From contig NW_027556593.1 in assembly GCF_964204865.1 (NCBI RefSeq), forward strand, positions 1 to 64,000: a stretch of 64,000 nt of DNA, read 5' to 3'. Under the pieces are notes generated by a model. It was given only the letters and a program-made list of their open reading frames with translations. It searched no databases and was not told where the DNA came from. Made by a program: the position numbers and the translations under genes. Of the stretch, positions 10,129-32,135 are shown one piece after another. Origin of the DNA: Styela clava (Eukaryota). The stretch's first letter is position 1; each line of letters starts with the position of its first letter.

Positions 10129-12559
10129 TGTTATTTTGTTCCTCCCATGTTACATCTTGTTTGAAATAATCTATACATTTCGTATCTCCACAAAAGCATT
10201 TAATGATTGTTCTTTCTTTGAACACCATTAAAAAACCTTTGTATGTTCGTTTGACTGTATCATGATGGATCTTATTAAGGTGACATTTAGGTACAAACCC
10301 TATAATATTTTCCTGTGTCATGCAACGTCTAACGCTATATCCCTTATCTTTTAGCATTTGAACCAAGTTCTGTACTCTACCTTCTGTTTTAATCCCTTTT
10401 TCATAAACAGCACACTCTTCAAGCATATTCTCTACTTCTTTTGGTATGTCTATTGGTTTTACATTGTTGTTATTATAATAGTAATCATTCTTATCTATCA
10501 TCATCATATAGCTATATGGCTTAACTTCAATGTCATATTTCGAAGCAATTTTTCATTTTAATTTTCATAATTTCTTGCTAGGATTTTTAAAAACCAATTT
10601 GTATTTCCCTTTTTCTTTTCCTCACTTAGAAGTTATTGACAATGTTTTATCTTTGTATTTTAACAACAAAGGATGTTTTTGTACAGTGTCATCGTCATCG
10701 AAAACAACGTATTCCTGTGCTGGTTTAATAGCTAATGAATTAAATTGTTGAAACCTTTGTATGTTGTTTCCAGAAGTGAAAGGGTTAACCATATCTACCA
10801 AACTAATTTTTTGTGTGTCTACGGCATATTCCTTTTTCCTATTGATAACAAAACGTTCGGAATTATTATTTTCACCAACATACGATAGTGTTCATTGTAT
10901 TTTATCTAATTCGATTCCGAGCCTTTTGATTTTTTCAACCATATCCATATTGTCTTCAAATAACTTTTTTCGATAACTCTCTTCAAAAGCAAATCCAACG
11001 AATTCGTGAGGCAATTCTTTCATTCGATCTTCCTCGAATAATTTCAATCACGACAATCTTTCTTCATATGGGTACAATGATAGTTTTTTGTTATTAACCA
11101 ACAACGCACTTTGTTTTGATGGTTTGTATATTCCTTTTGCCACTATCTTTTTCGTTTCCTTAATTTTATAGCAGTGGTTGTTCACATCTCGACTTAAAAA
11201 TCAATCTAGTTCTGAAATAGTTACTTCGAAACCACTTTTATCCATTACTTTTTTAGGTACACCCGTCAAATCTTTTTTACTTTGAACGAAAACACCGTCC
11301 GTATTAATGTTGATTATTACAGCCTCGGGATCCTGCAATAAAATATTGCTTATTAACAATCAAATTAAAACTCGTCCTTGTCTGCAAATTCAGTTTTGAG
11401 TGGCAAATCCAGCCTCGTTATTTAAAGAGTTCTTTTTGAAAAAATAGGGAAGAAAACCAAATGTCGAATTCAACAATAGTTTCATCGCTTCACGTTTGAC
11501 CTTGTCCTCTTTTGTTCCGTATTTAAGCACTGTTGTTTGATGTTTTAACTCGCAATATCTGTTAAAGCTAGCTTCAGTAAACAATTTAAACAATTTAGAT
11601 TGTTGTCCAAGTACCAAAATGTTTGGGTAAAGACTTGTGAAATCCATCGAATAAATTTTACCTTCTGTTTCGCTAGCCTTAAAAAACTTTCTAAAAACGA
11701 CATTGTGAACCCCTCCGTTGTAATTATTTCCGTTATTAAGACAATTCTTGTTGTGCGCTGGTAGGTTTATTGGGTTAAAATCATTTTCTTTAATGTGATT
11801 TCAAAACTCAGGATTATCCTTGCTTATCCCGAAATTCATAATCGTATACGGATCGATCACAATTGTTTCTGGATTGAATTTAAACAAATATGGTAAAACG
11901 TATGTAATTTTTTTATTGAAAAGAGCTCAATCCAATTTACGAACTGCCAACAAACTTTGATTTGTCATCAATTGTTTAATGTTTAAATACGGGTGTCTGT
12001 CGTGGTTTTTGTATAATTTGTATGTAGCTTCCAAGTCATTTTTCAAATACGCAATACATTTTTCTTTGTTGTTTTTGTAATAATCTCATTCTTCGAATTG
12101 TCTCTTATCACCTTTTTCGCCCTTTCAAATATCTTCTCCAAATTCTTTGAAGTATTTATTTTTTAATGACGGTCCAATCGACTTATATAAATCAAATTGG
12201 TTATCCGCCAAATCGTAAATCTGTGGTCACTCGTAAGCATAAAGTCATGAATAAAAAGTATTATTTTTCTTGTAAAACTTCGCCACTTGTTTATAACCGT
12301 TATTAATAATATAACCGTTGTATTCATTTAAGTTATTTCCGTTGTTAAAGTAGGTTATCATTAAAACATCATATCGAAAGAAATTGAAACCAATTATTTT
12401 GTCACAATTTGGCATGTATTTTTTTATACCTGCATCGTGATTACTAAACTCTCGAATCGTAATTTCTTTCGTATCAACGTCCATTTCCCCCACAATAAAA
12501 TATCATTCTTCAAAATTTTTGCCTTTGTATAATTCTGTATCGATAATTAATTTTTTCAT
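10112..12559 (-). CDS. Family B DNA polymerase (815 aa) with C-terminal primase-like and Zn-finger extension
   Basis: Exo motifs IDTE, GFNFFRYD, YLKND; Pol motifs DFTSLYPN, KLLLNSTFG, NTDG; frame runs on without TAA/TAG into ORF 10112-10507. Confidence 0.9.
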
Positions 12560-14124
12560 TATTTTATGTTTCCTTCCTTATATTTTTTGCTAATTATAAA
12601 TCATCACCCGTTAACCATTTTACCTGAAAATTCATTTTCTCTTTTTAATCTTACTTTTTCAACATCGTAAGTATCAAAATCAGTATTCTCAAGTAATTTG
12701 TTAAAACGAATTTTTCCTTCATTTTCTCATCTATTATCTTTACAAAAAGACTTGTATTCTTCGTATATTATTTTACCATTTTTTTCCAAGGTTATATCGA
12801 TAACTTCTTCGAATAAATTGTCCAAAAATTGTTCTAATTTTGGTCTTGTTCTTTTTGCGTACAATTCTTTCATTTCTTTTGTTTGATATATTTTACATTT
12901 CGATTTCACAAAATAATAAAATGCGATTGTCATAATCTTTGTCAAACTTTTCTTGTTGTACATAATCGACTCTGGATCATGTCTTGCCTTGTATTTACCA
13001 AAATTGTTTTTTAGTTCTATAAAGCAAAAACGTCTTCGTAAAGCCTCTCGTCCATTGATTTCCGAATTGATATGGTATACTTCATTAGTCGAAAAAATAT
13101 AATTTTGAGGAGGAATTACTTTTGAAAAGCTTGTTTTGTATTTTTCTTCGAAAGATTTAACGCAATTTTTGTCTGTAAAATCCTTCAACAATGCTATTCT
13201 GCTTTTATTTAATTTGTATTCCTCGTCGAATAAAACAGCAACTCGGTTAATTAGAGTTGTATATATCATTTTGTGTCCGGCATCTAGCATTTTGATTGAT
13301 GCTTCATTTTGAATGCCGTCCTCGTTTGTTTTCTTTATTAATCGTAAAAACTCAGATTTACCATTGTTTCCTCCACCATTAATTACTACTATACTTCCCA
13401 TTTTTGCTCTGTAGAGATTGACCTTAGCTAATATTGTGAATAATGTCTTTGTTAATTCTTCGTCTTTTTTAGCGAAATCCGCAACAAATTCGTATTCTTT
13501 ATCATTGCGGAAATCAATTTCGTTATTTAAATATTTAGTAAAAAGTTCATAATCGAAAAAAGTCTCATTTGGTATAAATCATGGTTTTTTGTGTTCCTCT
13601 GTCATCTCCTCTTTATTTTTTAATATCATGTCAGGTAATTCTCATTCGGTAATTCCGTTGTCGGCAACTCGGTATAATCCTTTGTTGGCGAAAAAAAACC
13701 CTTTTCTGTTTTGAATGAATCCTGCCATTTTTTTTTGATATTCAAAACTGCTATCTCTGTCCGTACTAAAATATTGTGGAAAATCTTCTCGAACGTTTTT
13801 GATCAAGTTGATATGTCCAATACTTTTTTTTGTGAAAAACTCTAACAAATCAAAATCGTCTCATTTGATTCATTTTTCTTTATAAAATAAATAAAGTCCA
13901 ATCGAATCAATGTGAAAAATAGGGAGCGTTGCCCTTATATACATACATATAAAGGCAACTTTTCCGTCTTTCAACCCACAATTGTTGAGAAAAAAACTTG
14001 GTGGTCAGTCTGGAACCAATAATCGATGTTCACTGTAGTTAAAATTACTATTATTGAATAGCTTTTTGACCACTTTTGTTTTTTCCGATTGTGTATTGGG
14101 GATGAGGTCTAGCTCGCGTCTCAA
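12559..14124 (-). CDS. SF3 (D5/P4-like) replicative helicase
   Basis: GGGNNGKS Walker A, VLFDE Walker B, IFSTN motif C, ALRRR arginine finger; TTG start after AAGGAG. Confidence 0.88.
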
Positions 14125-14861
14125 CCCGAAGCGTCTCCTTTAACTTCAATTTTTTTTGAATTGATTTCGGGTTTGTCATATACGATTGAGTTGTAGCTAT
14201 TTCGAGTTAATGGAGCAATTGCTTCATCACGTTCTTTTCATTCACCGAATTTATCAGCTAAAAAGACTAATGAGTTTTGGAATTTTGGTGCCATTGAAAT
14301 TTTGTTTCATTTTCTCAAAGTTCCGTCTTCATTTAAGTAAGGTGTCTTTTTTTCCATATCTTGCATTAAGAAAGGTTGACGATAAGTTAATCCTCTAACT
14401 TTAAGATATACACCATTCATTTTGTCTTCTTTGATTAGTTTTACAGCAAAATCGAAAACATCTTTTTCATCGAAAAATTGTCTAATAATGCTAATAAAAA
14501 TTTTGATGTATTTTTGCTTTTCGATTGAATATGCGATGATTTGTAGTCGAATATATGAATCTCCATTCAATTTAGCGTTTTTACTATTTTGAATAATCCC
14601 GTGCGTCGCTTTGATGACTGATCCGATTACCATTTGTGCTCTTTCGAATGCTCGTTTTTTTTCTCCCGCAGTGACAAATTCCACTCCACTTTCTTTTTTT
14701 GCAGGTTCATTAACTACCACATTATTTTTTACAGATTCTGGCGTAGTTGTTGTTGTGTTTTGCAATTTAAAATCAGGTGCGTATTGTACTTCAGTTTTTT
14801 TTGTTGCAGGGTTTGTTGTTGTGTTTGTTGTTGTGTTTGTTGTTGTGTTGTTTGTTTCCAT
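14109..14861 (-). CDS. Putative single-stranded DNA-binding protein, Thr/Asn-rich N-terminus
   Basis: Replication-module position; acidic/aromatic tail GDASGWDAS; function inferred. Confidence 0.4.
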
Positions 14862-14872
14862 TTTTTTTCTCC

Positions 14873-15262
14873 TTATTGTTTTGGCACGTTTATTTTGGCC
14901 ATAATGGTTTGTTTTGCTTCTGTGATTTTTGTATGTTTGTTGATAATTTTTTCCAACTTAGCTGGTGGGATGCCGAATTCTAATTCGATATCCTTAACTA
15001 CCTTAACATAATTAATTTTTCGCATAGAAACTGGTTGTTTCATCGTTACTGAAAAAGAGTTATCTTTTCCGATAATTTTAGTCACTTCGTTTTGTGACAT
15101 GTAATTAATCATTGCTTCTTTGTGTAATTTAACTTTTTCTTTAATACACGCTTCTTCTTTTTTTGCTGTGATAAAACCGTCTAAAACGACCAAATCTTGA
15201 GCTGAAATTACTTCTAATACTTCTTTATTTTTCTTTAACATTAGTGTTTTATTTGTTTCCAT
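14873..15262 (-). CDS. Hypothetical protein
   Basis: ORF with GGAG RBS, conserved in copy 2. Confidence 0.7.
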   Translation of the reverse strand: METNKTLMLKKNKEVLEVISAQDLVVLDGFITAKKEEACIKEKVKLHKEAMINYMSQNEVTKIIGKDNSFSVTMKQPVSMRKINYVKVVKDIELEFGIPPAKLEKIINKHTKITEAKQTIMAKINVPKQ

Positions 15263-15272
15263 TTTTTTCTCC

Positions 15273-15596
15273 TTATTTTTTATTATTTGCTTTGTATTTT
15301 GCTTGTTCTGCTTTTTCTTTTTCTTCCATGTATTTTTTAGTGTGATGTTCTACAACTGCTGATAATTTTGAATAATCAAAAGATGTTTGTAAAATATCTT
15401 CATGCAGTGCTCTAAATTTAATACTTGCTTCTTTGTCTTTCTTGTTTTTTTTGAATTCAGCTTTTAATTTTTTTCCAAGTGATTCAATTTTTGACATTAA
15501 TTGTAATCTGTCATATTCAAATTGTGCTAAATCAATAGCATTTTCTTTTTGTGTTTTCATTGTTTTTTCTCCTATGTTTTTGTTATTTTTGGCCAT
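15273..15596 (-). CDS. Hypothetical coiled-coil protein
   Basis: ORF with GGAGG RBS, conserved in copy 2. Confidence 0.7.
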   Translation of the reverse strand: MAKNNKNIGEKTMKTQKENAIDLAQFEYDRLQLMSKIESLGKKLKAEFKKNKKDKEASIKFRALHEDILQTSFDYSKLSAVVEHHTKKYMEEKEKAEQAKYKANNKK

Positions 15597-16074
15597 TTTT
15601 TGGTCCTCCTTTATTTGTTCTAACTATAAAATAATATCCTAAAATAATTTGTACGATGAATAGTAATAGTATGATTATACCACAAATGATAAAACCAGTT
15701 GTTTTTAGTGATAAAAAATATCCTACTCATGCTGTGTAAAGTGGAATCAATCCACTAACTGTAAATATAAAACCTGATTGTACAAGGCTAAATGATTTCA
15801 AATCTTTTCATTTTCGTTCAATGTTTAATCCTGAAAAGAAAAACGAAATGTTTGTTGCCAGGAAAGCAAACGCCCCCATTGGAAAACCAAGAAGGTAATA
15901 AAAATACACCGCATTATTATCTCCACTCATGTCTCCGATGACACTTCATTCTACGTCACTAATCGCACATATTACTATTGACATTGTCGTAAATAATAAG
16001 GCTAAATAATTAATAGCCAATACTACCTTCAATATTGTTTTTTTTCAGTTTATCGGTTTTTTTATATTAAGCAT
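15583..16074 (-). CDS. Multi-pass membrane protein (163 aa)
   Basis: Code-4 ORF with about 4 hydrophobic segments. Confidence 0.65.
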
Positions 16075-16843
16075 TTTTTTTGTTCTCCGTTCTTTTATTT
16101 ATTATACACTGATAACAATATAAATTGTATCTTTTTCTACCTGTAAAACTTTCAGGTGTTTTTAATTCTGTATTTTCGAGGTTTTTATCTTCCGTGTGTT
16201 CAGCATCAAGATTGTTTCCACATTTACATTTATTGTACGGAATGTCAGTGAAATAATGACTTCTTTCTTTTAAAAAATCAATAATTGCTGTTTCATCTCG
16301 AAAAATACAGCTATATTTGTTAATCATAATATATGTAATTGATACTCCTCTCGAAAGTAAAAAACGAAAAATCATTAACACGTCATCCATTAAATGGTTG
16401 AAAAAACCTAATTCTTCAAAAACAACCATTTTTATATTTTTGGGTTTTTTAATGAATTTCGTGATTCAATCGTATTCGCTTCCAAATTCGAAAAATAAAG
16501 ATTTATTTGAAACAGATAATGATTGTCCCATATCTCACAAGAAACAATTTTTTTCAATTTTTGAAAACTCTTCGTGGCTTAATAATGATGTACTTAATTT
16601 GCACACATTGTATTTATCGTAATTGTCTGTTGGTCGAATTGATTCTTTCGGCACTACATATAGTATTTCATCAGGTTTTAGAAAACTATCCAGTCATTTC
16701 TTGACATTTGTGGTTTTTCCGGTTTTCATTGCTCCGAAAACACCAAACATTAATCCTGTTTCGAAACGTTCTGCGTCTTCTTCGAAATCAAATCATTTCC
16801 GATCATCATTTCGGTTTCATTTAATTATATTACTTTTTTTCAT
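16067..16843 (-). CDS. Divergent thymidine kinase-like protein
   Basis: FGAMKTGKTT, VVFEELGFF, Zn ligands CKC and CYQC. Confidence 0.7.
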
Positions 16844-17484
16844 ATTTCTCCTCAAAGCTCCTTATCTTGGGTTGTTTTCCTATATATTGTAACTTTTTCT
16901 ATTTGTTGTTTAACGGCGTAACCACCTTTAGCGTTGAAAAAATCGAATGTTTTTCGAAACGCAGAACGTATTAGGTTAACGTACTTTTTATCAAGGCATT
17001 TTTCGTCGTAATTGTTTGTTGGTTTTCGAATTGTTGCTCGACGCATTATTTCAGTCGTAGGACAATCGAGAAAATGAATTTCATCAGGGAAATAATCATC
17101 TAAAATAGTTTCGTTATATAATCCTAATAATTCATGTTCATTAATTGTTTTGTCTCCACCGAAAACTTGATAAGCATAAGTACTAAAAATGTATCGATCA
17201 CAAATAACAACATCGTATTTTTTCAATTGTGGTTTGATATATTTCATAAATAATTCTCATCCAATTCCGATAAACAAAACTGCTTTTGTACGTGAACTAA
17301 TATCTAGTTTATCATTGAAAAAGATTTTATTCGCCATAATGCGTCCAAATTTTATGCCTTTTGGTTCGCACGTCGTAAGTACTTTCAATCCTTCTTTTTT
17401 TAATTCTTTTTTTAATTTTTTAATATATGTTGTTTTACCAGAATAATCAATTCCTTCGACAACAATAAATTTTCCTTTTTTCAT
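16825..17484 (-). CDS. tmk: Thymidylate (dTMP) kinase
   Basis: FIVVEGIDYSGKTT, EP, VICDRYIFSTYAYQ, PD..FLD. Confidence 0.92.
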
Positions 17485-17486
17485 TT

Positions 17487-18150
17487 TTACATGTTCTCCT
17501 TTCGTATCACTATTGGTACTGCTTGTCCTTTCAGTTCAATAACTATGTGATCCCCAACCTTGTATCCTTGTTTGTTTGTTGATAAATTCACTTTCTTAGC
17601 GAAAATTTCATTCAATTTAACAGGGTGGTTCAATCATGCTATATAACTTATTTTACCAGTTTTTTTTTCCAAATTGTGTAGTTATTTTTTTGATTGTCGC
17701 ACACGCCGTCGGTCCCGGTAATTTGAACGCATATTTACGCTCGATAATAATACCATCAATAGGATAATCAATTTGTTTTTGTTGTTCGATATAATCGTTT
17801 AATTCATCAATTTTTATTGTTTTTTCAACATTTTTATAATTAATGAAATCAATTAGTTTATGTCGTTCCACTTTTTGCTTCCTATTAAGAAGACCAACAA
17901 CGTCTCTTCGTGTCCCATTTTCTTTCTTCATAACAAGTTCGCCCCAGCCGACTTCCAATATTCCTTCTATGGAAAAAGTTGTTATTTCTGATCAAGAACG
18001 GCAAACAATTAACTTGTTGGTAGAGGCATCATAAAATGCTCCCACTCCGTCAAGTTTTGGACTCACCACTATTGTTTTAGCGTGTGGTGCTAATTTAAAC
18101 AAAATGTCTTCTAAGTTTCAAAATTTTTTTAACGTTTTATTATTTATCAT
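17487..18150 (-). pseudogene. Minimal NAD+-type DNA ligase, +1 frameshift in an A9 tract (copy 1)
   Basis: PKLDG, GEL, YPIDGIII, AFK, then an OB-like domain; 664 nt versus 663 nt in the intact copy 2. Confidence 0.75.
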
Positions 18151-18496
18151 TTTGCAATTCTTCTAGTTTGATAATGTAGAAACTCAATAATCGCTTCATC
18201 ATTTCACAATGTAAAATATAACTAACTGGTTCTTTTATATCTTCTAATAATATATGTTGTGAATTATCTATATATCTTTCTCTTATTTTGAGATCCAACT
18301 CGCTATAGGTTTTAAATAAACTTTTGAGACCTTCAACATTTATTTTTTTAGTATATATTTCATATATTATCGTGTCTTCGATTATTCTATATTCTGAATT
18401 TTCGTTCCCATCAAAAAATCTGTAGGAAAAATATATTTCACTTTTTCTCTCCTTGTAGAAATATTTTTCATGTTCTAATTTGTCTCAATGATTCAT
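18140..18496 (-). CDS. Hypothetical protein
   Basis: Code-4 ORF coupled to its neighbours. Confidence 0.55.
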
Positions 18497-18778
18497 TTAT
18501 TTTGTGATATATCCTTTTTTAATTGCGTTTATCTCTCTTACTTTTTCATACGCTTCTTTTAGCGAGATTTTGAATATTTTAGCAATGGCTTCTGCGTCAG
18601 TACACAAAGCACCAAGGTTTAAAACATCATTAATTAGTTCTAAACCAATATATTTATGCTCAAAACATGGTGTAAATAATAGATGTGATGATTCGTCTAG
18701 GCAGTGAATGGTACAATAATCGCATTCATAAATGTTGTTGAGTATATCTTTATTATTTGGTTCAAATATTTTATTCAT
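18497..18778 (-). CDS. Hypothetical Cys/His-containing protein
   Basis: TAATG-coupled ATG at 18778. Confidence 0.6.
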   Translation of the reverse strand: MNKIFEPNNKDILNNIYECDYCTIHCLDESSHLLFTPCFEHKYIGLELINDVLNLGALCTDAEAIAKIFKISLKEAYEKVREINAIKKGYITK

Positions 18779-19794
18779 TATTTTTTTGTTCCTCCTCTTA
18801 ATTTTTTTCACAATTTAAATGCTGTGCTTGTTAAAACTAAGCTTAAAACGATGAAAGCAACGCCAGCTAATCCAAGCCCAATACTACTATTTACTACATT
18901 ATTTGCGTGATCTCCGTAATGCCCTTCTTCTGTTGAGATTAAAGCGCTTTCGAATGTATTGTCAATTTCTGATAATTTTTCAATATTGTCGTTTTTGGTT
19001 TTAAGTGATTCACTTTTGAATGTTTTATATGGTTCCGATAATTCTTTAATATCGTCTTTGTTAATTTCTTTTTTGTTGTTAGGAAATGTAAACTTATGTT
19101 GTGTTCACTTATCTTTAACGGTATTAAGTTTTTTTAGTTTTAATATTGAATTAGATCATGTTATACCTGCTGTTCTTTTTATTGTAGCTTCTATAAAACT
19201 TTCTTTAGCATAGGCAACACTATTAAAATTTGTACGATCGTATTCTTCGTCTCAAATATCATATGCCCTTCCAGCTATATCAAATTTTAGTTTATTAGTT
19301 TTTATTAATATTTTTTGGGTTATGATTTCTTCATCTAATTCATCAATGAAAATTTGACTATTTAATTTATAATCTTGTTTAATTGATTCTGCTACAAATT
19401 CATTAAATGTAATAGCTTGGGTATTTCCAATTTTATAATTACATTCTCCATTTTCGCTGATTTCAATTGTTACGTTACTATCTTTAATTATTCCATATGT
19501 ATTTTTAGATGCTGTTTTTTGAACTTCAAAATCTGTATCTCGTTTAGCAATTAATTCTTCATTTTTAGTAGTAAATGCTGTTTTTTGAACTTCAAAATCT
19601 GTATCTCGTTTAGCAATTAATTCTTCATTTTTAGTAGTAAATGCTGGTACGCTTTCGCTTAATGTGATACTATGTAACACAACTCCAGTGATAGCACCAA
19701 TTAAACTTAATGCGCCAACACCTAAGACAATACTTTCTCACCTATTTTTTTCTAAGAAGCTTAAAACTTCTTTAACTTGTTTATTTTTTGTCAT
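18778..19794 (-). CDS. Membrane protein with N- and C-terminal TM segments and an internal 22-aa repeat (338 aa)
   Basis: Code-4 ORF; IVLGVGALSLIGAITGVV and IGLGLAGVAFIVLSLVL segments. Confidence 0.7.
19510..19646. repeat. 66-bp exact tandem duplication (AFTTKNEELIAKRDTDFEVQKT x2)
   Basis: gctg recurs at 19511, 19577 and 19643 with identical units between. Confidence 0.92.
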
Positions 19795-20144
19795 TATTTT
19801 TGACCTCCTTTTTTTATTATATTTTCAATTTTTTTAAGTCTGACATCTAATCCTTTTAGTTTAAAATCTCTATTTCAATCAATTAATTCTTTGTTTTTTT
19901 CGGCCTCTCATTTTTCAGGCGTAGGTAACAAAGTGTTTAAATTTTTAATGATTTCTTTTATAGTTTTTAAATTATTTTCTATTTGTATTTTATTGTTACA
20001 TATGTCGACATCTAGAACCCCTAATTTGCTAAAAATAATTTCTAAGTTTCGTTCGAGTTTATTGTGTAAATAAGTTATACGTTCACTATCTGTCATTTTA
20101 TCTAACATTTTATCCTCTAAGGTTTTTTCTTTATTCTTTGTCAT
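19794..20144 (-). CDS. Hypothetical coiled-coil protein
   Basis: Code-4 ORF, TAATG-coupled. Confidence 0.65.
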
Positions 20145-20404
20145 TATTTTTGACCTCCTATTTTATTTAATTCCTTTATGTAATATTTTATCATGCTATT
20201 TATACTTTTGTACACTTTTTTTCGACGCGCCTGTTGTTTTTTTGTAATGTCTTTGGGGATCGAATTAATATCCAAATGTGCTGTCATAAGTCGTTGTACA
20301 TCAACTTTTTTCGATTTGAGATCGGCACGCAATTTTGATTCGCAACGTGACACTTCATCGTCAACAGCAAACATTCGTTTAATTTTATCTATTCTATTTT
20401 CCAT
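20144..20404 (-). CDS. Hypothetical protein
   Basis: ORF with AGGAG RBS. Confidence 0.65.
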   Translation of the reverse strand: MENRIDKIKRMFAVDDEVSRCESKLRADLKSKKVDVQRLMTAHLDINSIPKDITKKQQARRKKVYKSINSMIKYYIKELNKIGGQK

Positions 20405-20427
20405 ATTTTTTTCCTCCTTTCCTTATA

Positions 20428-20501
20428 TGGCAGGGATAGTAGGACTCGAACCCACACCAAAAGCTTTGAAGGCTTTTGTTCTACCTTTAAACTATACCCC
20501 T
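20428..20501 (-). tRNA. tRNA-Trp(UCA), decodes UGA
   Basis: AAAGC-CT-TCA-AA-GCTTT anticodon arm, short variable loop, GTTCGA, encoded CCA. Confidence 0.92.
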
Positions 20502-20506
20502 AAAAA

Positions 20507-20583
20507 TGGTACCCACGGGAGGACTCAAACCTCCAACCTAAGGCTTAGAACACCCTTACTCTAATCAATTGAGCTACGTGGGT
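20507..20583 (-). tRNA. tRNA-Arg(UCU)
   Basis: AGGGT-GT-TCT-AA-GCCTT; acceptor ACCCACG/CGTGGGT; CCA. Confidence 0.8.
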
Positions 20584-20588
20584 AAAAA

Positions 20589-20664
20589 TGGTCGGAAAGA
20601 GAGGACTTGAACCTATGATCTCTCGGACCCAAACCGAGTGCTTTTCCATCTAAGCTACTTTCCG
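20589..20664 (-). tRNA. tRNA-Pro(UGG)
   Basis: CTCGG-TT-TGG-GT-CCGAG; CCA. Confidence 0.92.
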
Positions 20665-20668
20665 ATAA

Positions 20669-20743
20669 TGGCTGGGGTAGCTAGATTCGAACTAGCGAAT
20701 GGTGGTCCCAAAAACCACTGCCTTTCCACTTGGCGACACCCCA
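20669..20743 (-). tRNA. tRNA-Gln(UUG)
   Basis: GTGGT-TT-TTG-GG-ACCAC; U1-A72; CCA. Confidence 0.92.
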
Positions 20744-20746
20744 AAA

Positions 20747-20822
20747 TGGTAGAGCCATTGGGGATCGAACCCAAGACCTCACGCTTATAAAGCGAGCGCT
20801 ATAACCACTAAGCTATGGCTCT
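20747..20822 (-). tRNA. tRNA-Ile(UAU)
   Basis: CTCGC-TT-TAT-AA-GCGTG; acceptor AGAGCCA/TGGCTCT, A73; CCA. Confidence 0.88.
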
Positions 20823-20825
20823 ATA

Positions 20826-20899
20826 TGGAGCAGATGAGAGGAATCGAACCTCCATAGTCAGATTGGAAATCTGAAGTTCTACCATTAAACTACATCTGC
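20826..20899 (-). tRNA. tRNA-Gly(UCC)
   Basis: TCAGA-TT-TCC-AA-TCTGA; U73; CCA. Confidence 0.93.
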
Positions 20900-20902
20900 T
20901 AA

Positions 20903-20979
20903 TGGTGCTGGTTACAGGCCTCGAACCTGTACTCGTCCGTTTACAAGACGGGTGCTTTGCCACATTAAGCTAAACCAGC
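20903..20979 (-). tRNA. tRNA-Thr(UGU)
   Basis: CCCGT-CT-TGT-AA-ACGGA; CCA. Confidence 0.9.
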
Positions 20980-20982
20980 AAA

Positions 20983-21068
20983 TGGTGGAGGAGGAGAGAT
21001 TCGAACTCCCGTATCTAAAAAGAATCTGATTTACAGTCAGACGCGTTTAACCACTTCGCTACTCCTCC
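20983..21068 (-). tRNA. tRNA-Tyr(GUA)
   Basis: TCTGA-CT-GTA-AA-TCAGA; long variable arm; CCA. Confidence 0.93.
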
Positions 21069-21069
21069 G

Positions 21070-21145
21070 TGGCGGACCTGACGAGAATCGAACTCGCTAT
21101 CTCCTCTTAGACAGAGAGGCATGTCATCCATTACACCACAGATCC
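21070..21145 (-). tRNA. tRNA-Asp(GUC)
   Basis: CCTCT-CT-GTC-TA-AGAGG; G73; CCA. Confidence 0.9.
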
Positions 21146-21148
21146 AAA

Positions 21149-21437
21149 TGGTGGAGATGGCGGGATTTGCACCCACTTCTTGACGCAATTTGATCATGAT
21201 TGTTTAATTTCGCTTTATATGATCATTCAAACGAAACTTAGTTGCTATTTACGAAATTGTCCCGCAACTGACAATTAAGGGGTTTTTTTGTTATTATATT
21301 CTCTAATATGACGGTGAAAACTGAAACGTGTTATTAGATACCAATGAGGATTCATTCATCAACATTGAAAGGTTGTTTGTAGTTGTTTTTGCATTTGTTA
21401 AAAAAAGAAACTACGCCAATCGAACCTATACATCCCC
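21149..21437 (-). ncRNA. ssrA: tmRNA (289 nt)
   Basis: 5' GGGGATG pairs with CATCTCC-ACCA including G3.U; T-arm; helix 2 TTGGCGTA/TGCGTCAA; tag ORF 21392-21303; two pseudoknots. Confidence 0.9.
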
Positions 21438-21443
21438 GAATAT

Positions 21444-21449
21444 ATTATA
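21444..21449 (-). promoter_or_regulatory. -10 box (TATAAT) for the tmRNA-tRNA operon
   Basis: TATAAT ends 6 nt upstream of the tmRNA 5' G. Confidence 0.6.
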
Positions 21450-22451
21450 CTACACTTTTCCTCCTCCAAATAATTTTCTTTTTAAATATTGTAGAAATGT
21501 TTCTTTCTTTTCTATTGGTGTTTTAGGTTCGAGTTTCCTATAAACTCTTGCGAAACGATGCAATGCTGGTCATCTACTGGTGAATATTTTATTCTCTCCA
21601 TAAATGTTATAGTGTTTACCAACAACCTCAAAACCTTTATCTTTAATGTTTTTAGGTGTTTCATCGAGCGAAAAAATGTAATCGTTTCAAATTCACAATT
21701 TACGAAAAACAGACAATAAAAGATGATTTGTTTTATCTTTTTTAATTTTAATGTCATTCTCGATAACATATTCTTCGATAATATCTTTAATTTTAGTATG
21801 TGTTTTCGTACTTTTTTTATATTTGTTGTCTAAGTATAAGTTGTCAACCTCTATTGTACTAAATCGCATTCTTTTTATTCGATATAGCGATCATTTAGTT
21901 AATCTATGTTTTTTAAAAAAAGGACTTTGAAATTTAATGTCTTTACATAGTTCGATTTGTTCTTCATTTAGTTTTCACAAATTGTGTTTCTTGATTTCTA
22001 ATTTTTGACAAATAGCTTTTATATCTTTTTCTTGAAGATATATAGTTGTGTTTTTAAATATACTGATTTCGTATTTGAACTTTTCAAGAAACTTTAAATA
22101 TCCAAATTCTTCTCCTGTTTCGATAATCTTTTTCGCCAAAATAGAAGCACTCACTAATGCTGATTTTGGATCAAAGCATTTATTGTATATATTAAGTGAT
22201 TTAATATTGTAAAACACAGGACAACCTTCTTTATTCATGTATCATTTGGCTCCTGCTTTCTTCATTCTATTCAAGAATCATCAATAAACCGAAAAATGTT
22301 CCTCAAAAGTAGTTAATATTCCCGATTTGGTATCTTTCGAGTCTCAGTAGTTAACTCACACTTGTTTACTTGTTATTCCTTTATGTTTGTGTGTGTAGTA
22401 AAACATTCTTTCCTCGTATGTTAATTGATTTATTTGTTTTTTATTTTTCAT
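21450..22451 (-). CDS. Hypothetical basic protein (333 aa)
   Basis: Continuous code-4 frame containing ORF 21975-22238. Confidence 0.65.
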
Positions 22452-22455
22452 AGTT

Positions 22456-23010
22456 TTATTTATATTTAGTCTTTTCTATATAATGTTTAATACATAATAC
22501 TTGATATTTATCAGCGTCTCCAACCAAATTATTACTGTCGTTGTGTAAAATGTAATTAGAATATGCTTTTTCATCGCATTCGAAACAACGAGCTTCGTCT
22601 AATTGGTAACGAACGTCAGCAAATCTTCCAACGTATTCTTGAAAAAAATATCGTGGATCTGTCTTATATAATGTCAATAGACAAAATACAAGAGTAATAC
22701 GACGGCGTTGTAAGTTTGGAATTTGTTGTAGAAACTCATATGGATAAAAGTGAAATTCATCAAAAAATAGAACATTGTGTCCTTTAGCTATGGCATCTTC
22801 AATTTTATTTGTCAAATCGATATGATCACGAAAAGTGATAACTGGTCTAATTTGACGTGTTTCTCTTGTTGTTCCTTCTAATTGAAAAATTTGTGGTTCT
22901 TCAATACCTCATTCTGCGATAAGCTTTTTTAACTTTGTCGTCTTTCCTGCTCTCATGATTCCTTCGATTGAAATAATGAGCCCTTTATTCAATAACTCTT
23001 GTTTGAACAT
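22456..23010 (-). CDS. Thymidine kinase-like protein
   Basis: IEGIMRAGKTT, VLFFDEFHF, RCFEC, YQVLCIKHY; GGAGG RBS. Confidence 0.78.
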
Positions 23011-23055
23011 TGTTTTTTTTCCTCCTGTGTTCCTTTTTTTTTTATTTTTTTTGTT

Positions 23056-23212
23056 TGCTGGCAGAGAGACGAAGCCTTGACGTTTACCAAGACCTCGTCA
23101 TAAAACCGGCCGTAATATGACCGGTTAAGGTGAATGAAACAGTGACTTTGAAAATAAAAAGATAAAGGAAAGGAAATTGTCGCTTAAGCTAGTTGTCACT
23201 GCCTCTTCACAA
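23056..23212 (-). ncRNA. Putative structured leader or small RNA (three hairpins)
   Basis: Intergenic stems 23130-46/23195-210, 23104-26 and 23068-99. Confidence 0.45.
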
Positions 23213-23263
23213 TAATATACATGGTAAAAAAAATAAATTGTGTTTCCTTTTTGCATCTTTTTT

Positions 23264-23665
23264 TTATCTTTTTTTTTCTTGTTTTGTAATTTCCTTTTCA
23301 AACTTTTTGAGCATGTCCTTAAATATCATTTGATGTAGAAAATCATATCCAAATTCTTTATCAAACTTTTTTTCAGGCATGTCTTCTCGTCATTCAGCGA
23401 AAACAACATTCAACCGGCATAGTTTTTTAGTGTCGCAACTTACCATAACCTTAAGGTCAAATGATTTATCCTCGTCTTTACGTTGTTCGAAATTCATGAA
23501 GAACACAACTCTTTTACTGTCGTTATCATCTCAACTGGTGTTTGTGTATATTCATTTTCGATGTTTTTTTGTAATTTCCTTACTGATTTTTTCAAAATAA
23601 TCATGAAACTTCAAATTTCTCTGATTCATTTTTGAATTAAATTTTTCTACTTGTTTTTTTGTCAT
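23264..23665 (-). CDS. Hypothetical protein
   Basis: Code-4 ORF MTKKQVEKF... Confidence 0.55.
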
Positions 23666-24452
23666 ATATTTCATTATTCTTCTCCTTTATATTTATACGA
23701 TCCTCTTTTTTTCGTGAATTTTTGATTAGCTATTTCTTTTCTAATTCTATTAATTGTCTTTATTTTTTCAACGTTTTCTTTTTCTCAATCAAGAACAGCA
23801 TATACACCAATAAATATTTTGGGATTATCGCCTTTTTTTCAAGTTGAAAGTTTTGTTTTTGCTAAGTTAACAAGATTTTTTCGACATCTATTGAAAGCGC
23901 TACGTGAAACTTTATTTTTCATGTAAGATGGGTAATTATTTGTTGATTCATCGGCTTCATTATAGTCTTTGTTAAAATATTTTTGTGAAATTTTTCAAAC
24001 TTTTTTCATACGAATATTTTCAAAATCATAACTATATAATCTATTTCAATTTTTAGCTAGTATAATTGAACTCATTTCTTTTCTAATAGTTTTTTTAAAT
24101 TCTTCAAGATAATCATCTAATTTTTCAAAATCCTCAAGTATTAAATAAACTTCGATTTTGTTATTATCACTATCTTCTAAATGATATCATCGTCTAGGTT
24201 TTTTTTCTAAAATATGAATATTAAAGTTTACAAAGTCAAATCTATGACCCATAGACTCAATAGTGACGACAAAACGACCTCTCAAAGGTTCATGTGGTGA
24301 CTCATCCCAGCTCATTCAATCACAATAAACCATACCACAATTCATTTTTTCAACAGCACTAATAAGTGTATTTTCCATTTTTTTTTCTAATTGTTTTAAT
24401 TCGTCGTAAGATATTTTTTTATATTTTCCATTTCCATCCGAAAAATTTGACA

Positions 24453-25049
24453 TTATTCTTTTCCTCCTTTTAGATATTTAATAATATAATCTATTTTTTT
24501 TTCAACCTCTAATAATCGTTCTTCTGTAATTGCACCGCTACTTGTTGGGTGAGGTACCGCCATTTGAATTAATCTCTTCATGGTCTTAAAAGCCGGTAAA
24601 TTGGGAAATCTATATTTTTCATTTTTGTTTCATCATTTGTTATGTTCATACGTGTATTTATCATCATCCCTTACTGTACTAGTACAGCTTTCTCACACGC
24701 TATTAATGTATTTTAAACTCAAGTATGCGTCTTTTAAGTTAAAAGGTTTAGGTAATAAATTAGCATATCCATTCAATTCATAAAAATCTTCATCTTTATT
24801 TTTTATAATACAGTTACCGTTTGTTAATAGTGGTGTGGCTGACATATAAACACCTGTTTTGTGTAAGCTATATAATCTAACAACATATAATTTATTGTTG
24901 TATATAAACATATCTAATTTTTTATATTTTTTTTTAGAATCGTAAAGTGGAACACCTTTTTTGATGAAAGCCACTTGTTCTTTTGTCAATTGTCATTCTC
25001 AAATATGATCCGCGTTGTGTTTTAGTGTTGTTTCTTTATTTTTTGTCAT
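24453..25049 (-). CDS. Stand-alone copy of the repeat domain found in the giant virion protein (198 aa)
   Basis: WQLTKEQVAFIKKGVP...PFN...LSLKYINSV...FPNLPAF aligns by eye with the repeats at 38704, 39889, 40438 and 42217. Confidence 0.75.
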
Positions 25050-25570
25050 TATTTTTTCCTCCTTTTTCAAACGTTTTAACTGTTACGTAAAAACCTTTTT
25101 TTGCTCAAACAGTATTGTCTTCGTCCCCTTTTGGTGATCATATTGTACTTTCAATACTAGTTCTAGCATCATATTCAATTTTTAAATCTCATAGTATACT
25201 TTCCAATTTATCCAACTCTTTTTTGTTTTTCATTCAAATTTTATATGTTTTCATTATTCTTTTCCTCCTTTGTTATCTAATAATTCTTTTTTAATTAATT
25301 TTTCTTTTTCTTCTTTGATCAATCTTTTCAATTCAATAATATCTTCGTGACCTAACAAAATACATATAGCAGGTATAGTACCTAAAATTGGTATTAATAA
25401 AAGAAAAGCTGTATATATACGTATATTTCTAACTTTTTTTCATAATTCTTTATATTTTGTTTTTACTATTAATGTTGCTTTTTCGTTGTATCTAGCTTCT
25501 AATGATTTGTTGCTGTTATTGTTTGATGATCCTAAGGCAAATCCTATTAATCCACTTGTAAAATTATCCA

Positions 25571-25906
25571 TTATTCTTGACCTCCTTTATTTTTTATAAT
25601 CATAATTATACAATAAACAATAAGTAATGCTCCAAATACTCCTGCTGAAATACCAGAGTTGATAACTTTTGTGGTTAATCTACCAGCATCTCGAAGATCT
25701 CTCGCTACTATATCTATTACTTTTGAATTTGTATACCCTGCTGTAGATTTTACATTTTTAACTCCTATAGTTTCAGTAATATATACTTCCCTATCTACGA
25801 TACGTTGTTGTAGTTTAGAATAAAAAACACCTACACATATCAAAGAACTTACAAGTCCTAACGTAGTAACTCCTACGATTAAACCATCTGTTTTATTAAA
25901 TTTCAT
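25571..25906 (-). CDS. Two-TM membrane protein
   Basis: Hydrophobic ends; TAATG-coupled. Confidence 0.7.
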   Translation of the reverse strand: MKFNKTDGLIVGVTTLGLVSSLICVGVFYSKLQQRIVDREVYITETIGVKNVKSTAGYTNSKVIDIVARDLRDAGRLTTKVINSGISAGVFGALLIVYCIIMIIKNKGGQE

Positions 25907-26078
25907 TATTCTTTTCCTCCTATTGTTTTAAATAATTTTTTAATATTTTTTTCTTGTTCTATACTTTTTTCTGCGTTATGATTAATACATTCACCTAACT
26001 TTTTAATGTCTTCATGATTTGCTTTAATCATCTTTTCAAAATTTTTCAATAATTGAATAATAGTTTCATTTTTTGTCA

Positions 26079-26450
26079 TTATTCTTTTCCTCCTAATTTG
26101 TTTATTATTTTTTCACATGTGTCTACGGTCTTTTCAAGAATATCTTTTTTAGGTAGTTTTACATGTTTTAAACGTTCTCTTAATGGCATTTTATTCAACT
26201 CACTATCTGGCATATCGCCGGTTGTGTTCATTGTTGCCTTATTCATAGCGTACACTGATAAAGGAAACATTAACATCATAACAGAAGAAATTGTTAATGA
26301 AAAACAGCAAACAATAGCTATGAGTTTTAAATTTGTATTATGTAATTCTACTATTCCAAAAATTGAAAGAGAAAAAACTATAATAAAAAACACCAACAAT
26401 AATATATCATAAACATTTAATTTATATTTTTCGTTAATTTGTACATCCAT
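26079..26450 (-). CDS. Two-TM membrane protein
   Basis: Hydrophobic segments; TAATG-coupled. Confidence 0.7.
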   Translation of the reverse strand: MDVQINEKYKLNVYDILLLVFFIIVFSLSIFGIVELHNTNLKLIAIVCCFSLTISSVMMLMFPLSVYAMNKATMNTTGDMPDSELNKMPLRERLKHVKLPKKDILEKTVDTCEKIINKLGGKE

Positions 26451-27065
26451 TATTTTTTTCCTCCTTTTAGGTTTGATCCTATATATTTTACAACAGCGCT
26501 TAAAAGTTTCACTGTGTCATTTTGATTGTGAATTAGTTTTGTTATTTGTAACTTCATTAATTCAATTTCTTTTCGTGAATTATTTTCCATTGGTTTTTTT
26601 CTCCTTAGAAGTGATCTTATCTGTTTTCTTCTTTATTTCTATATTTTTATTATATCACATTATTTTTTTTCTTTCATTATTTTTTTCCTCACTCTCAGGG
26701 AGGTCCTCTTCTTGTTGCGATAATATCTTCATAATTATCTATACAATGTTTAAATGCTATAATCATATTTTTATACTGCTCTTGCATATCCATTTCTTTT
26801 TGTATTCTTTCTTCACATTCATCGTAAAGTCTGCTACTATTCGCTAAATGTTCTCTCAATAAGTTTAAATCGAGACCCCATGGGACAATGCTATTTTCAA
26901 TCTCATATATATATTCTTCTACTGTCTTTTTTTTTACTGGTTGGTTTTCACCATCTTTTTCCTTCATTTTTTGAATTATTGCTCACATAAGCAATTGTTT
27001 ATAAAACTTTAAACTTTCGTATTTTTTTATTACGTTATCCACGTAGTTTTCTACTTTTTTGTACA

Positions 27066-28319
27066 TTATTTTTCTTTTCCTCCTTTTGAAATAATCAAAT
27101 GTTTTTCTCATAATTTTTTAAATTTAATCATGTCTAATTTGAAACTATTTTTCTTACTTATTAATTTAATCAATAATAAAGGTACTCCTTTTGATGTAAC
27201 CAAATCAAATATTTTTTCTCCTTTTAAAACATAACCTTTTTGTATGTTTAATAAATCACTTACTGTTTTTGTTGTCATTATTTTTCAAAAAACCTTTTCT
27301 TCTTTCATTACTATTGTATCATATTCTTTTTCGAAAAGTTTAAATAAAAATGGTCCTCGATAATTTAAGAAGTAACCACGCATTGAAGCATTTCGAATTA
27401 AATGTCGTACAACCGAACCGTGACGTTTTTTGAAATCAATATATTTTTCTTTAATCAAGTCTTTCAAACAATATTTTATCGCTAATACATGATCACAAAT
27501 AATTTTAACATTGATATCATTTGTAGTTTTCTTTTCAATTTTGTCAGCAATATCAGTGTATTCTTTCAACTGGAAAGGTGTTTTAAAGTTGTTAACAACA
27601 ATCAACAATCTTTCCAATCCGGCTCCAGTATCTATATTTTTTTTGTTTGACATAGTATAATTACCTTCACCATCATTTAACATATAAGAAAATACAACGT
27701 TTCATATTTCTAAATATCTGTCATTATCAATATTTTCTTTCAATAAATCAATTCCTTTGTTTTCTTTATCTAACTGCTGTCCCAAATCATAAAAAAATTC
27801 AACATTTGTTCCACATGGGCCAACTCCTAAATCTCAAAAATTAGTTGTTTTATCTCCTGAAATCAAATGGTCTTCTTCAACACCTATATTTAACAATATT
27901 TGTTTAGTTTCATCGTCCGAAAACAAATACGTAATGTACAATTTTTGAATGTCCAAATTCAATCATTTTGGCGATGTTAAAAATTCTAATGCTCACGTTA
28001 ACGATTCTTTTTTTTGATAATCATTAAATGAAAAGTTACCTAACATGCGAAAAAACGTTAAATGTCGATTAGTTTTACCTATTAAAGAGATGTCGTTTGT
28101 TCGTATTACATCTTGTACGTTAAAAAGTCGTGAATGCGGTGGTGTTTTTTCTCCTAAAAAATAAGGTCTCAACGCTGAAACGCCTCTCAACGCTGAAACG
28201 CCTGAATTTACAAATAATAATGAACCTTCTTTGTTAATTATCGATTTGTTTTCTATTTTAAAATGTTTCTTTGAAGTTCAAAACTGACTTCATTTTTCTA
28301 TTAATTCTGTTTTATTCAT
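27066..28319 (-). CDS. alaS: Alanyl-tRNA synthetase, aminoacylation half only (417 aa; no editing or C-Ala domain)
   Basis: LLFVNSGV, Q..IRTNDI..IG...RHLTFFRMLGNFSF.DY.K, NFW..G.GPCG..EFFYD, RYLEIWNVVF, IDTGAGLERL, IICDH; own RBS and coupled stop. Confidence 0.93.
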
Positions 28320-28349
28320 TTTGTTTTTTTCTTTTCTCCTATATTTTTA

Positions 28350-28604
28350 TTATAACATACTTTTTTTTATTTTTGTTTCTAATTTTTCAATTCAATACAA
28401 AGCCACCGGAATCACGACGGCAAGCCCTAACAAAATACGGCCCAACCAATCACCTACCTCGCGTACATTCGATACTGTAATACCATAAATATATAGTACA
28501 TATATTACGCCCATATATATAAATATAATAGTGAGTGCGATTACAGTTGTAAGCAACAACAACCACACCAGATTAAACAATATGGTTAGTGTTTGTTTAT
28601 TCAT
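28350..28604 (-). CDS. Small membrane protein
   Basis: Two hydrophobic stretches. Confidence 0.6.
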
Positions 28605-28995
28605 GTCCAAATCAACCTATGTTATCCAGGCAAATTACAGTAAAAAATGCTAATGCTGGGTTAAATACAAACAATAAACCTAAATTATCAACCGAAGTAA
28701 TATCTATTGTTAATGCCAATACTATACACATGTTTAAATGCGTAAGATAAATAGCCACTATAACCACACCTAAAAAATTAAATACTTCTTTTCTAGTTAT
28801 TGGTCAGAAATTATCAATAACGTCTATCAAGAACATACCAATAAACATTGCCACTATTCACGTCACGGATAAAATAAATCGCACGTAGTCCAACGTCGTA
28901 TTGAATCCTGAGCCCTCGTATATGTTTCAAATACAAAAGCCCAATATTCCAAAGTACGTAATTACTGCCAATCACCCTATAGTTTTGTCTTTCAT
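28597..28995 (-). CDS. Multi-pass membrane protein (132 aa)
   Basis: Code-4 ORF, AAGGAGG RBS, about 4 hydrophobic segments. Confidence 0.65.
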
Positions 28996-29168
28996 GTCTT
29001 TTCGACCTCCTTTTAAATTATTGTACCATACTTTATTAATATTTCTGTCAAAATAAAATAATAATTGCTGTGAATGCATAAAAACACCTCTGCCACAGCG
29101 AAAAAATTAACGGCAAAAAAAATTAATAAATGTTTGTTCATATTTTTCATAATTATATTGTACCACAA

Positions 29169-29540
29169 NNNNNNNNNNNNNNNNNNNNNNNNNNNNNNNN
29201 NNNNNNNNNNNNNNNNNNNNNNNNNNNNNNNNNNNNNNNNNNNNNNNNNNNNNNNNNNNNNNNNNNNNNNNNNNNNNNNNNNNNNNNNNNNNNNNNNNNN
29301 NNNNNNNNNNNNNNNNNNNNNNNNNNNNNNNNNNNNNNNNNNNNNNNNNNNNNNNNNNNNNNNNNNNNNNNNNNNNNNNNNNNNNNNNNNNNNNNNNNNN
29401 NNNNNNNNNNNNNNNNNNNNNNNNNNNNNNNNNNNNNNNNNNNNNNNNNNNNNNNNNNNNNNNNNNNNNNNNNNNNNNNNNNNNNNNNNNNNNNNNNNNN
29501 NNNNNNNNNNNNNNNNNNNNNNNNNNNNNNNNNNNNNNNN
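29169..29540. other. Assembly gap (N run)
   Basis: Run of n. Confidence 0.99.
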
Positions 29541-29744
29541 AAGGCCTCCAAAACGCCCAAAAAGCCCCTTTTTAAGCCATTTTAGGCCCTTTTTAGCTTT
29601 TTTTGGTACTTTTTCCGGTGTTTTCATTTGGTCATTTCCGACCCCTCCACATGCTCAAAATCGACCCATTAGGTGGCCAAACAGAGGCGGAAGGTTGAGG
29701 GTGTGGGGTTTGGTTCATTTATTCATTTTTTGGCTTCCTTTTTT

Positions 29745-29870
29745 CGTTTTCTCGTTTTCTTGTTTTCTTGTTTTCTTGTTTTCTTGTTTTCTCGTTTTCT
29801 TGTTTTCTCGTTTTCTTGTTTTTGTCTTTTTCGTTTTCTGTTTTTGTCTTTTTCGTTTTCTGTTTTTTTT
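29745..29870. repeat. 8-bp tandem repeat TTTTCT(T/C)G, degenerate distally
   Basis: ttttctcg/ttttcttg array directly downstream of the 29893-29921 promoter. Confidence 0.85.
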
Positions 29871-29892
29871 CTTCTTCTTCTTTTCTAATTTT

Positions 29893-29921
29893 ATTATATA
29901 CCAAAATTTTTAATTTGTCAA
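29893..29921 (-). promoter_or_regulatory. Consensus sigma-A promoter
   Basis: TTGACA-17 nt-TATAAT. Confidence 0.85.
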
Positions 29922-30260
29922 GTGTTTTTTTTAATTTTTTTTGATTTTTTTTGGCTTGTTTTTCCTTCTGATAATGCCATTTTTTCCCTTTTGCTAATTT
30001 TTTTTTTGCTTTTTCTTATATTTATTTTATACCTTTTTTTTTATTTGTCAAGTATTTTTTATTTTATTTTTTATTTTTCGATTGTTAAATTTAGGCCCTT
30101 TTTTTTTGCGTTCAATGGTTTAGGTCGTTTTTTTTAATTGCGGGCCTGTTTCGCGTTGTTCAATTTTGAAGGTGTAAAATTAAGCCCGTTTTTTTTTTTG
30201 ACGGCATAAATTACGTATTTTATTTTTTCGCGTCTAATTTTCATAGTGCCCAAATGCGCA

Positions 30261-30287
30261 AAAAAAGCCCGGAGATTCCGGGCCTTT
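30261..30287 (-). terminator. Intrinsic terminator
   Basis: AAAGCCCGGA-ATC-TCCGGGC-TTTTTT on the minus strand. Confidence 0.8.
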
Positions 30288-30378
30288 CTGCTTGTCGCGG
30301 TGGTGCTGTTGGTGGGTGGTTTTAAATGTAAACGCTCGGGGTGTCTTCGTCGTCGCCGTCCACATTTTCGGCCTCTCT

Positions 30379-30708: not shown

Positions 30709-30775
30709 TTTCTAAAATCTCCTTTTTTTAATTATATCATATTTTAATTTAATTTGTTTTGTTTTTTTGTTTTTC

Positions 30776-32058: not shown

Positions 32059-32135
32059 TTTTAAAATCTCCTTTTTTTTTCTTTTCTTTTATTAAAATTT
32101 AATTTGCTTTTTTCTTTCCCTCTTTCTCTAATTAT

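Follow-up and report, generated by a model that had tools for sequence, protein, structure and literature searches.

How little of the tmRNA scaffold is enough for ribosome rescue is the question raised by a short RNA gene in the window, by which we mean the whole 64,000-nucleotide stretch of DNA analysed here. The structure expected at the position of pseudoknot PK1 is in dispute, a stable hairpin being held necessary on one side and single-stranded RNA being held sufficient on the other. In the available portion of PMC4236655, an E. coli tmRNA with single-stranded RNA in place of PK1 supports efficient tagging in vivo, and swaps in the 2b-2d/PK1/upstream segment almost abolish tagging. According to the accessible text of PMC13692277, Tanner et al. 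concluded that the PK1 position must be occupied by stable structure. Recent cryo-EM and simulation work implicates helix 2 and PK1 in tilting of the head and in loading of the message, and the cryo-EM authors propose that the two assist tilting of the 30S head. A natural RNA lacking both PK1 and three of the four sections of helix 2, usually taken as the best-conserved part of the scaffold, would be a direct test of these views and, if active, would define a smaller working scaffold. The RNA described here, read as a tmRNA in a Mollicute phage, offers such a natural test of the minimal structure for ribosome rescue.

Loss of PK1 by itself is not unique, since there are precedents in Oenococcus oeni, in a Pavlova plastid and in the crAss-like tmRNAs considered below. 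As given in the portion of PMC1168896 available, only helix 4 is missing from the O. oeni and Pavlova tmRNAs, and among helices 2b-2d the best conserved is said to be 2d. These two and the engineered E. coli tmRNAs (Wower 2009; Tanner 2006, both as cited by others) resemble the window RNA in being without the PK1 pseudoknot. In all of them, however, PK1 alone is replaced or reduced and the excerpts do not report removal of helices 2b-2d, whereas the window RNA is without both. The Carsonella tmRNA, 202 nt long according to an extract of PMC4131195, may also lack PK1. It shares strong reduction with the window RNA, as does the mini tmRNA of mycobacteriophage DS6A, which is likewise a phage gene but has no tag frame. 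A literature search on natural absence of PK1 returned nothing relevant by title.

The gene under study and its flanking RNA operon are placed as follows.

21149..21437, minus strand: one-piece tmRNA gene, 289 nt, CCA encoded, matching RF00023

20428..21145, minus strand: nine tRNA genes that come after the tmRNA, spaced 1-5 nt apart, all with CCA encoded

21444..21449, minus strand: perfect -10 hexamer ending 6 nt before G1, with no good -35

An earlier sequence-only reading had described a 289-nt tmRNA and had proposed alignment to RF00023 as a check. With cmscan, the alignment spans model positions 1-374 of 374 at exactly 21149-21437 (E=1.2e-13, 38.1 bits), which agrees with that length. 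The score lies under the RF00023 gathering score of 47, the model positions for helices 2b-2d and PK1 being gapped, and the gene was overlooked in the 64-kb window both by ARAGORN and by the Rfam gathering-threshold scan. Since such genes are missed by these tools, the number of similar ones is probably underestimated, also in lineages described as tmRNA-less. An end-anchored tmRNA pattern matched once in the window and in none of 100 shuffles. Judged by its TLD and its tag, which carry the family assignment, 21149-21437 on the minus strand is a real tmRNA gene. Two other architectures were ruled out. A two-piece (permuted) tmRNA does not fit the standard order of segments, and matches to RF04321 are partial and weak (13-18 bits); a TLD-only mini tmRNA of the DS6A type does not fit the presence of a 29-codon frame with a resume context. 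BLASTN against phages (69 records) and plasmids (11) gave only short matches with coverage of at most 19% and no homologue, so that neither a covariance model nor a count of covariation was possible.

The two ends of the RNA and the scaffold that joins them to the tag are made up of five elements.

21420..21437, minus strand: 5' acceptor strand and 11-nt D-loop, including the G3 of the G3.U pair

21149..21176, minus strand: T arm (loop UGCAAAU), 3' acceptor strand, discriminator A and CCA, from the RF00023 alignment

21408..21419, minus strand: 5' strand of helix 2 (nt 19-30), which with its partner is the whole of helix 2, 11-12 pairs by stacking and pair probability

21180..21191, minus strand: 3' strand of helix 2 (nt 247-258), with no orphan 2b-2d strand before it

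21393..21407, minus strand: single-stranded U/A-rich linker of 15 nt, where helices 2b-2d, PK1 and an upstream element would otherwise lie

The TLD is complete and of the alanine type, with a 7-bp acceptor stem, the G3.U pair, discriminator A, encoded CCA, a stemless 11-nt D-loop and a T arm. A G.U at acceptor pair 3 is found in the tmRNA alone among the ten RNAs of the operon, and T-loops with U-G-C also occur in fetched tmRNA loci (L026, L047, L055, L058, L067). Helix 2a stands where an anticodon arm would be. As a stem of 12 pairs, helix 2 has a stacking energy of -16.2 kcal/mol; with the TLD and pseudoknot stems fixed, its pair probability is 0.90-0.98 and nt 39-45 are unpaired at 0.8-1.0. 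Unconstrained folding gives a rival hairpin, nt 24-29/54-59 (p about 0.5), that disrupts helix 2 and masks the resume codon. Helices 2b-2d are gone on both strands, and helix 2 is shortened in register; because the last pseudoknot ends at nt 247, no strand of 2b-2d remains.

The sequence-only reading held that there is no room for PK1 before the resume codon, and this was borne out. No two-stem pseudoknot candidate was found in nt 30-45. Over nt 30-57, the best candidate scored -2.6, a value equalled by 146 of 300 shuffles, and the segment has an MFE of 0.0 kcal/mol, so that neither a pseudoknot nor a stable hairpin fits. The same reading had called the RNA a naturally minimised tmRNA. Its description of a compact one-piece molecule with no PK1 and two downstream pseudoknots stands, and every motif it gave was found where it had been placed, but the description was incomplete, the bigger loss being that of helices 2b-2d. 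As far as a single sequence can tell, the structural novelty is a one-piece tmRNA without PK1 and without helices 2b-2d, in a Mollicute phage.

Where translation would resume bears directly on this reading.

21303..21392, minus strand: tag reading frame of 29 codons with a UAG stop; GCA resume codon at 21390-21392, alternative ACA at 21378-21380 in the same frame

The GCA starts at nt 46 (window position 21392), directly after TAACAAAT. We scored candidate starts with a weight matrix built from 28 distinct contexts of fetched tmRNAs (training range 0.2-11.5 bits). Among positions 30-134, GCA46, the resume codon of the sequence-only reading, ranks first at 8.8 bits, within the median range of real resume contexts, and the top four positions share one frame. 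The bases at -4 and -5 of GCA46 are A and C; E. coli tmRNA cannot do without A86 and tolerates U85C (PMC2481249, in extract). The A42 of the linker is likely the equivalent of A86, and the resume codon is most likely GCA46. The cmscan alignment, full-length as it is, instead puts the resume consensus further 3', on the ACA at nt 58, in the same frame and again without PK1. This ACA has the second matrix score (5.4 bits), and in the constrained ensemble the U-run and A-run upstream of it form about 1.8 pairs. An active tmRNA could thus be pictured as resuming there with a 25-codon tag, a weak U/A hairpin at nt 30-53 standing in for PK1. We find this alternative highly improbable. The G at +1 holds 92% of the matrix weight, the U/A hairpin alone is unstable at 0.0 kcal/mol, and a start at ACA58 would still leave no PK1, the best candidate scoring -3.5.

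Likeness to a Mollicute tag also supports the GCA46 frame. One row of the 2025 seed alignment, U00089.2, we take to be that of M. pneumoniae. In this row, as given in the part of the PMC11915505 supplement available, M-L-I-A-N stands opposite M-L-M-N-E of the window RNA. A 10-nt run is common to the two tags and occurs in only two rows of the part of the alignment that was searched, the second having letters there identical to those of U00089.2; the run was picked after being seen, and alignment gaps could conceal further rows. Counted by eye, M-L falls at codons 10-11 from GCA46, 6-7 from ACA58 and 12-13 in M. pneumoniae, which fits the GCA start better than the ACA start. The U00089.2 row (387 nt) has the TLD, resume context, long Mollicute-type tag with an M-L-x-x-N stretch and terminal pseudoknots in common with the window RNA, and differs from it in possessing helices 2a-2d, a PK1 stem and, counted from the row, a resume codon near nt 84.

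Mollicute tags are described, in the accessible parts of PMC8403727 and PMC9382460, as long and read by Lon. The window tag is probably of the Mollicute type and read by Lon; its end is an aromatic-rich stretch without the NYAFA-type motif of M. florum. That 29 codons stay open is weak evidence in code 4, where another frame stays open longer. Neither of the other two tag frames was accepted. One of them ends in tandem UAA UAA and has a UGA, which reads as Trp here, in a hairpin loop; its starts among the top ten score at most -0.8 bits.

The interior downstream of the linker contains helices and pseudoknots of unequal standing.

21302..21365, minus strand: two predicted helices within the tag frame, in the nt 73-82/91-100 region and at nt 100-106/130-136

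21240..21276, minus strand: pseudoknot A (nt 162-198; stems 162-168/177-183 and 169-174/193-198), aligned at PK3

21191..21238, minus strand: pseudoknot B (nt 200-247; stems 200-209/223-232 and 213-219/241-247), aligned at PK4 and abutting the 3' strand of helix 2

The sequence-only reading had seen two clear H-type pseudoknots here, and both exceed chance. Among 300 local dinucleotide shuffles, 2 matched pseudoknot A and none matched B, these regions having been chosen after being seen. Over the whole interior (nt 31-247), with no region picked, only A and B reach a stacking of -17.5 kcal/mol; 11 of 200 shuffles of that interval contain one pseudoknot at this level and 1 of 200 contains two in tandem. 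The scores are sums of stem stacking from our own script and not full pseudoknot energies. On the cmscan alignment, A and B would be PK3 and PK4. The same alignment puts the nt 73-100 helix at helix 5 and the nt 100-136 helix, also present where it had been described, at the first stem of PK2, both assignments being uncertain. A third pseudoknot built on the latter is weak (94 of 300 shuffles were as good); since its second stem is at chance level, the count of two stands, and the helix is a possible PK2 remnant.

Compact tmRNAs are known elsewhere, and they allow the direction of the reduction to be judged. GTDB was scanned for one-piece tmRNA ends 276-308 nt apart, a pattern that overlooks genes not starting with GGGG, shorter or longer genes and genomes outside GTDB. 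None of the 73 loci obtained is the window RNA or a relative of it. Sorting by ARAGORN, Rfam and reading yielded 45 tmRNA genes, 20 loci ending in a tRNA and 8 chance matches; where Rfam was applied, 16 of 20 loci were confirmed at the match. Fifteen of the 45 tmRNAs were set aside, eight for N gaps and seven for a missing tag or 5' region. In each of the remaining 30, the resume codon lies at nt 82-109 (three read by eye), helix 2 comprises 20-27 pairs and a candidate for PK1 scores -12.5 or better, against nt 46, 12 pairs and no PK1 candidate in the window RNA. Nine phage loci first sampled comprised five one-piece, three two-piece and one TLD-only gene, and all five one-piece tmRNAs (270-437 nt) keep a PK1 candidate, with resume codons at nt 84-96. 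The compact one-piece tmRNAs of about 270-307 nt, from Tremblaya phenacola, psyllid symbionts, Sulcia, Saccharibacteria (GTDB) and Streptomyces phages Genie2, Jada and Muntaha, are like the window RNA in length and in being one piece, and some are phage genes beside tRNAs. Their reduction lies downstream, with helix 2 and a PK1 candidate retained, whereas the window RNA is reduced upstream. In none of the 35 one-piece comparators, compact or from phages, is helix 2 short or a candidate for PK1 missing, so the window RNA shrank the opposite way. Two further loci were noted in passing. A 304-nt tmRNA that keeps PK1 lies by five tRNAs on a short MAG contig (L045:426-2349) and probably marks another phage tRNA array, and Streptomyces phage Alone3 has an unannotated 80-nt TLD-only gene of the DS6A type (L079:457-536; RF00023 E=5.6e-12).

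The nearest parallel for the absent PK1 is found in crAss-like phages. Eight crAss-like records were matched, of which five were sampled (L076:453-809, L083, L084, L085 and L086). None of the five two-piece tmRNAs has a credible PK1, the best candidates scoring -3.8 to -8.0 and overlapping helix 2, and in all five helix 2 covaries and has 19-22 pairs, the linker is 11-12 nt long and the resume codon lies at nt 63-69. These RNAs (cr124_1, cr130_1, cr131_1, cr273_1 and Dulem virus 42) are, like the window RNA, phage-encoded, PK1-less and furnished with a short A/U linker. Theirs differ in being permuted, with an open ring, a longer helix 2 and short tags, and the sequences are unrelated. To judge from these genes, crAss-like two-piece tmRNAs appear to lack PK1 as a family, a loss of which our literature search found no description. 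Should the window RNA prove a fully active tmRNA, it and the crAss-like RNAs would suggest that phages harbour a hidden class of tmRNAs without PK1, missed by standard tools.

Decay of a copy, or deletion of the 5' scaffold in assembly, would account for the missing parts, and the assembly is imperfect, with a 372-base N gap, two copies at 96% identity and a frameshifted ligase-like gene. N gaps or a missing region also affect the 15 compact GTDB loci set aside above, and the phage alanyl-tRNA synthetase (AlaRS) described below looks eroded. Such an origin would nevertheless require two deletions, one in each strand of helix 2, and yet a perfect helix of 11-12 pairs remains. The linker holds no PK1 remnant, the resume context is good, pseudoknot B abuts helix 2 and elsewhere the operon is intact. 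One of the loci set aside (L060) has the look of a single deletion: the 5' scaffold and resume context are lost and an orphan 3' strand of helix 2d is kept, whereas the window RNA has no orphan strand of helix 2. We consider decay or artefact quite improbable as an explanation.

The sequence-only reading did not recognise that the gene belongs to a phage with a code-4 genome and is not the cell's own ssrA.

1..45313, strand not assigned: phage or prophage genome unit in code 4, 45.3 kb, repeating at 96% identity from 45314 by self-alignment

27066..28319, minus strand: truncated AlaRS of 417 aa in code 4 (PF01411, E=3e-73)

Code 4 fits the window cleanly, with 177 TGA against 3 TGG codons in 24 ORFs. 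Phage genes include those for a terminase, an SPP1-like portal, a primase, an exonuclease, thymidine kinase (TK), thymidylate kinase (TMK) and a family B polymerase; a Pfam scan of 43 ORFs found neither SmpB nor an integrase. The terminase gave no tblastn match in phages and none in a word-indexed protein search, and its best match among 96 representatives has 28% identity. By these comparisons the phage is without a close relative. The host is most likely a Mollicute, because the best named relatives of the phage AlaRS are Mollicute enzymes (about 40%). Our literature search found no tmRNA in a Mollicute phage, and the words 'tmRNA' and 'tRNA' are absent from a 2024 review of Mollicute phages.

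A tight operon of ten RNA genes starts with the tmRNA. The nine tRNAs that follow (Asp, Tyr, Thr, Gly, Ile-UAU, Gln, Pro, Arg and Trp-UCA) are all intact and do not include a tRNA-Ala. Ile-UAU and Trp-UCA fit the codon use of the phage, which has 240 ATA and 177 TGA codons. The tRNA-Ile UAU lies at 20747-20822 and the tRNA-Trp UCA at 20428-20501, both on the minus strand, ARAGORN calling the latter SeC. The -10 hexamer ahead of G1 is absent from a consensus promoter scan, which requires a -35; it is a possible promoter with a leaderless start.

The phage AlaRS consists of the aminoacylation domain alone, without editing or C-terminal domains. It differs at 15 of 84 columns that are invariant in 17 named homologues and keeps most catalytic motifs; homologues left out in turn differ at 0-5 columns, except for a hemoplasma enzyme at 21 of 105. 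The changed residues include the stretch aligned to the P-S-N motif, and the protein has a tandem six-residue duplication near its N-terminus. From its sequence, the enzyme may be linked to the tmRNA and charge it, or else be decaying.

The RNA could act as a decoy or inhibitor that is charged and SmpB-bound and loads message poorly, titrating host trans-translation or absorbing anti-tRNA nucleases, like the DS6A RNA. Inhibitory TLD-only phage RNAs that act on tmRNA are known, as far as the portions of PMC4131195 and PMC11915505 available describe them, and the Alone3 gene is another of the TLD-only type; moreover, the missing parts are those implicated in message loading. A decoy would, however, need no conserved resume context, no Mollicute-like tag and no pair of perfect pseudoknots, and we regard this explanation as unlikely.

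We judge it probable, with considerable room for doubt, that the gene specifies a phage-encoded, minimised one-piece tmRNA that carries out trans-translation from GCA46 in a Mollicute host with host SmpB. For this active reading we counted the perfect TLD, pseudoknots beyond chance, a helix 2 trimmed in register, the top rank of GCA46, the run shared with the M. pneumoniae tag, the intact neighbouring tRNAs, the efficient tagging by the E. coli tmRNA with PK1 replaced and the PK1-less crAss-like tmRNAs. Against it we counted the homologue searches that found none, the sub-cut-off Rfam score, the 35 of 35 comparators in which helix 2 is long and PK1 has a candidate, the rival hairpin, the weak frame evidence in code 4, the tag without NYAFA, the published need for structure at PK1, the segment swaps and the head-tilt proposal.

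On the active reading, the tmRNA would be transcribed together with the tRNA operon and charged with alanine by the host AlaRS, perhaps also by the truncated phage enzyme. Bound by host SmpB and EF-Tu, the charged RNA would enter stalled ribosomes; after translocation, SmpB would stack on A42 and place GCA46 in the A site without the contact between PK1 and the A-site finger. By a rough estimate, a helix 2 of 3-4 nm together with 11 free nucleotides would span the distance to SmpB in the P site. Contour length of the ring that otherwise comes from helices 2b-2d, PK1 and PK2 would be supplied by the linker and the long tag. The phage would gain ribosome rescue during infection, with a Mollicute-type tag probably read by Lon. 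The stronger claim, that this is a fully active closed-ring tmRNA needing neither PK1 nor helices 2b-2d, set in a phage rescue module with a dedicated editing-less AlaRS, we put forward tentatively and lean against.

Several features of the surrounding genome were recorded alongside. The tandem phage copies at 1-18654 and 45314-64000 are 96% identical, with differences concentrated in a 1,650-aa protein, and in the first copy a frameshift interrupts the ligase-like ORF (17653-18150 versus 62834-63496); the copies are either tandem prophages or the product of a concatemer or mixed assembly. The region 28320-34050 is mostly non-coding, has short tandem repeats and promoters close to the consensus besides the N gap, and is likely a control or origin region. 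Within it, just upstream of a tRNA-His, an unannotated structured stretch of 152 nt on the plus strand (33711-33862; z=-3.99, 0 of 200 shuffles) has no Rfam match and is a possible ncRNA. Further along, 36319-44112 on the plus strand encodes a repetitive 2,597-aa protein without a Pfam match, which is probably a tail or adsorption protein.
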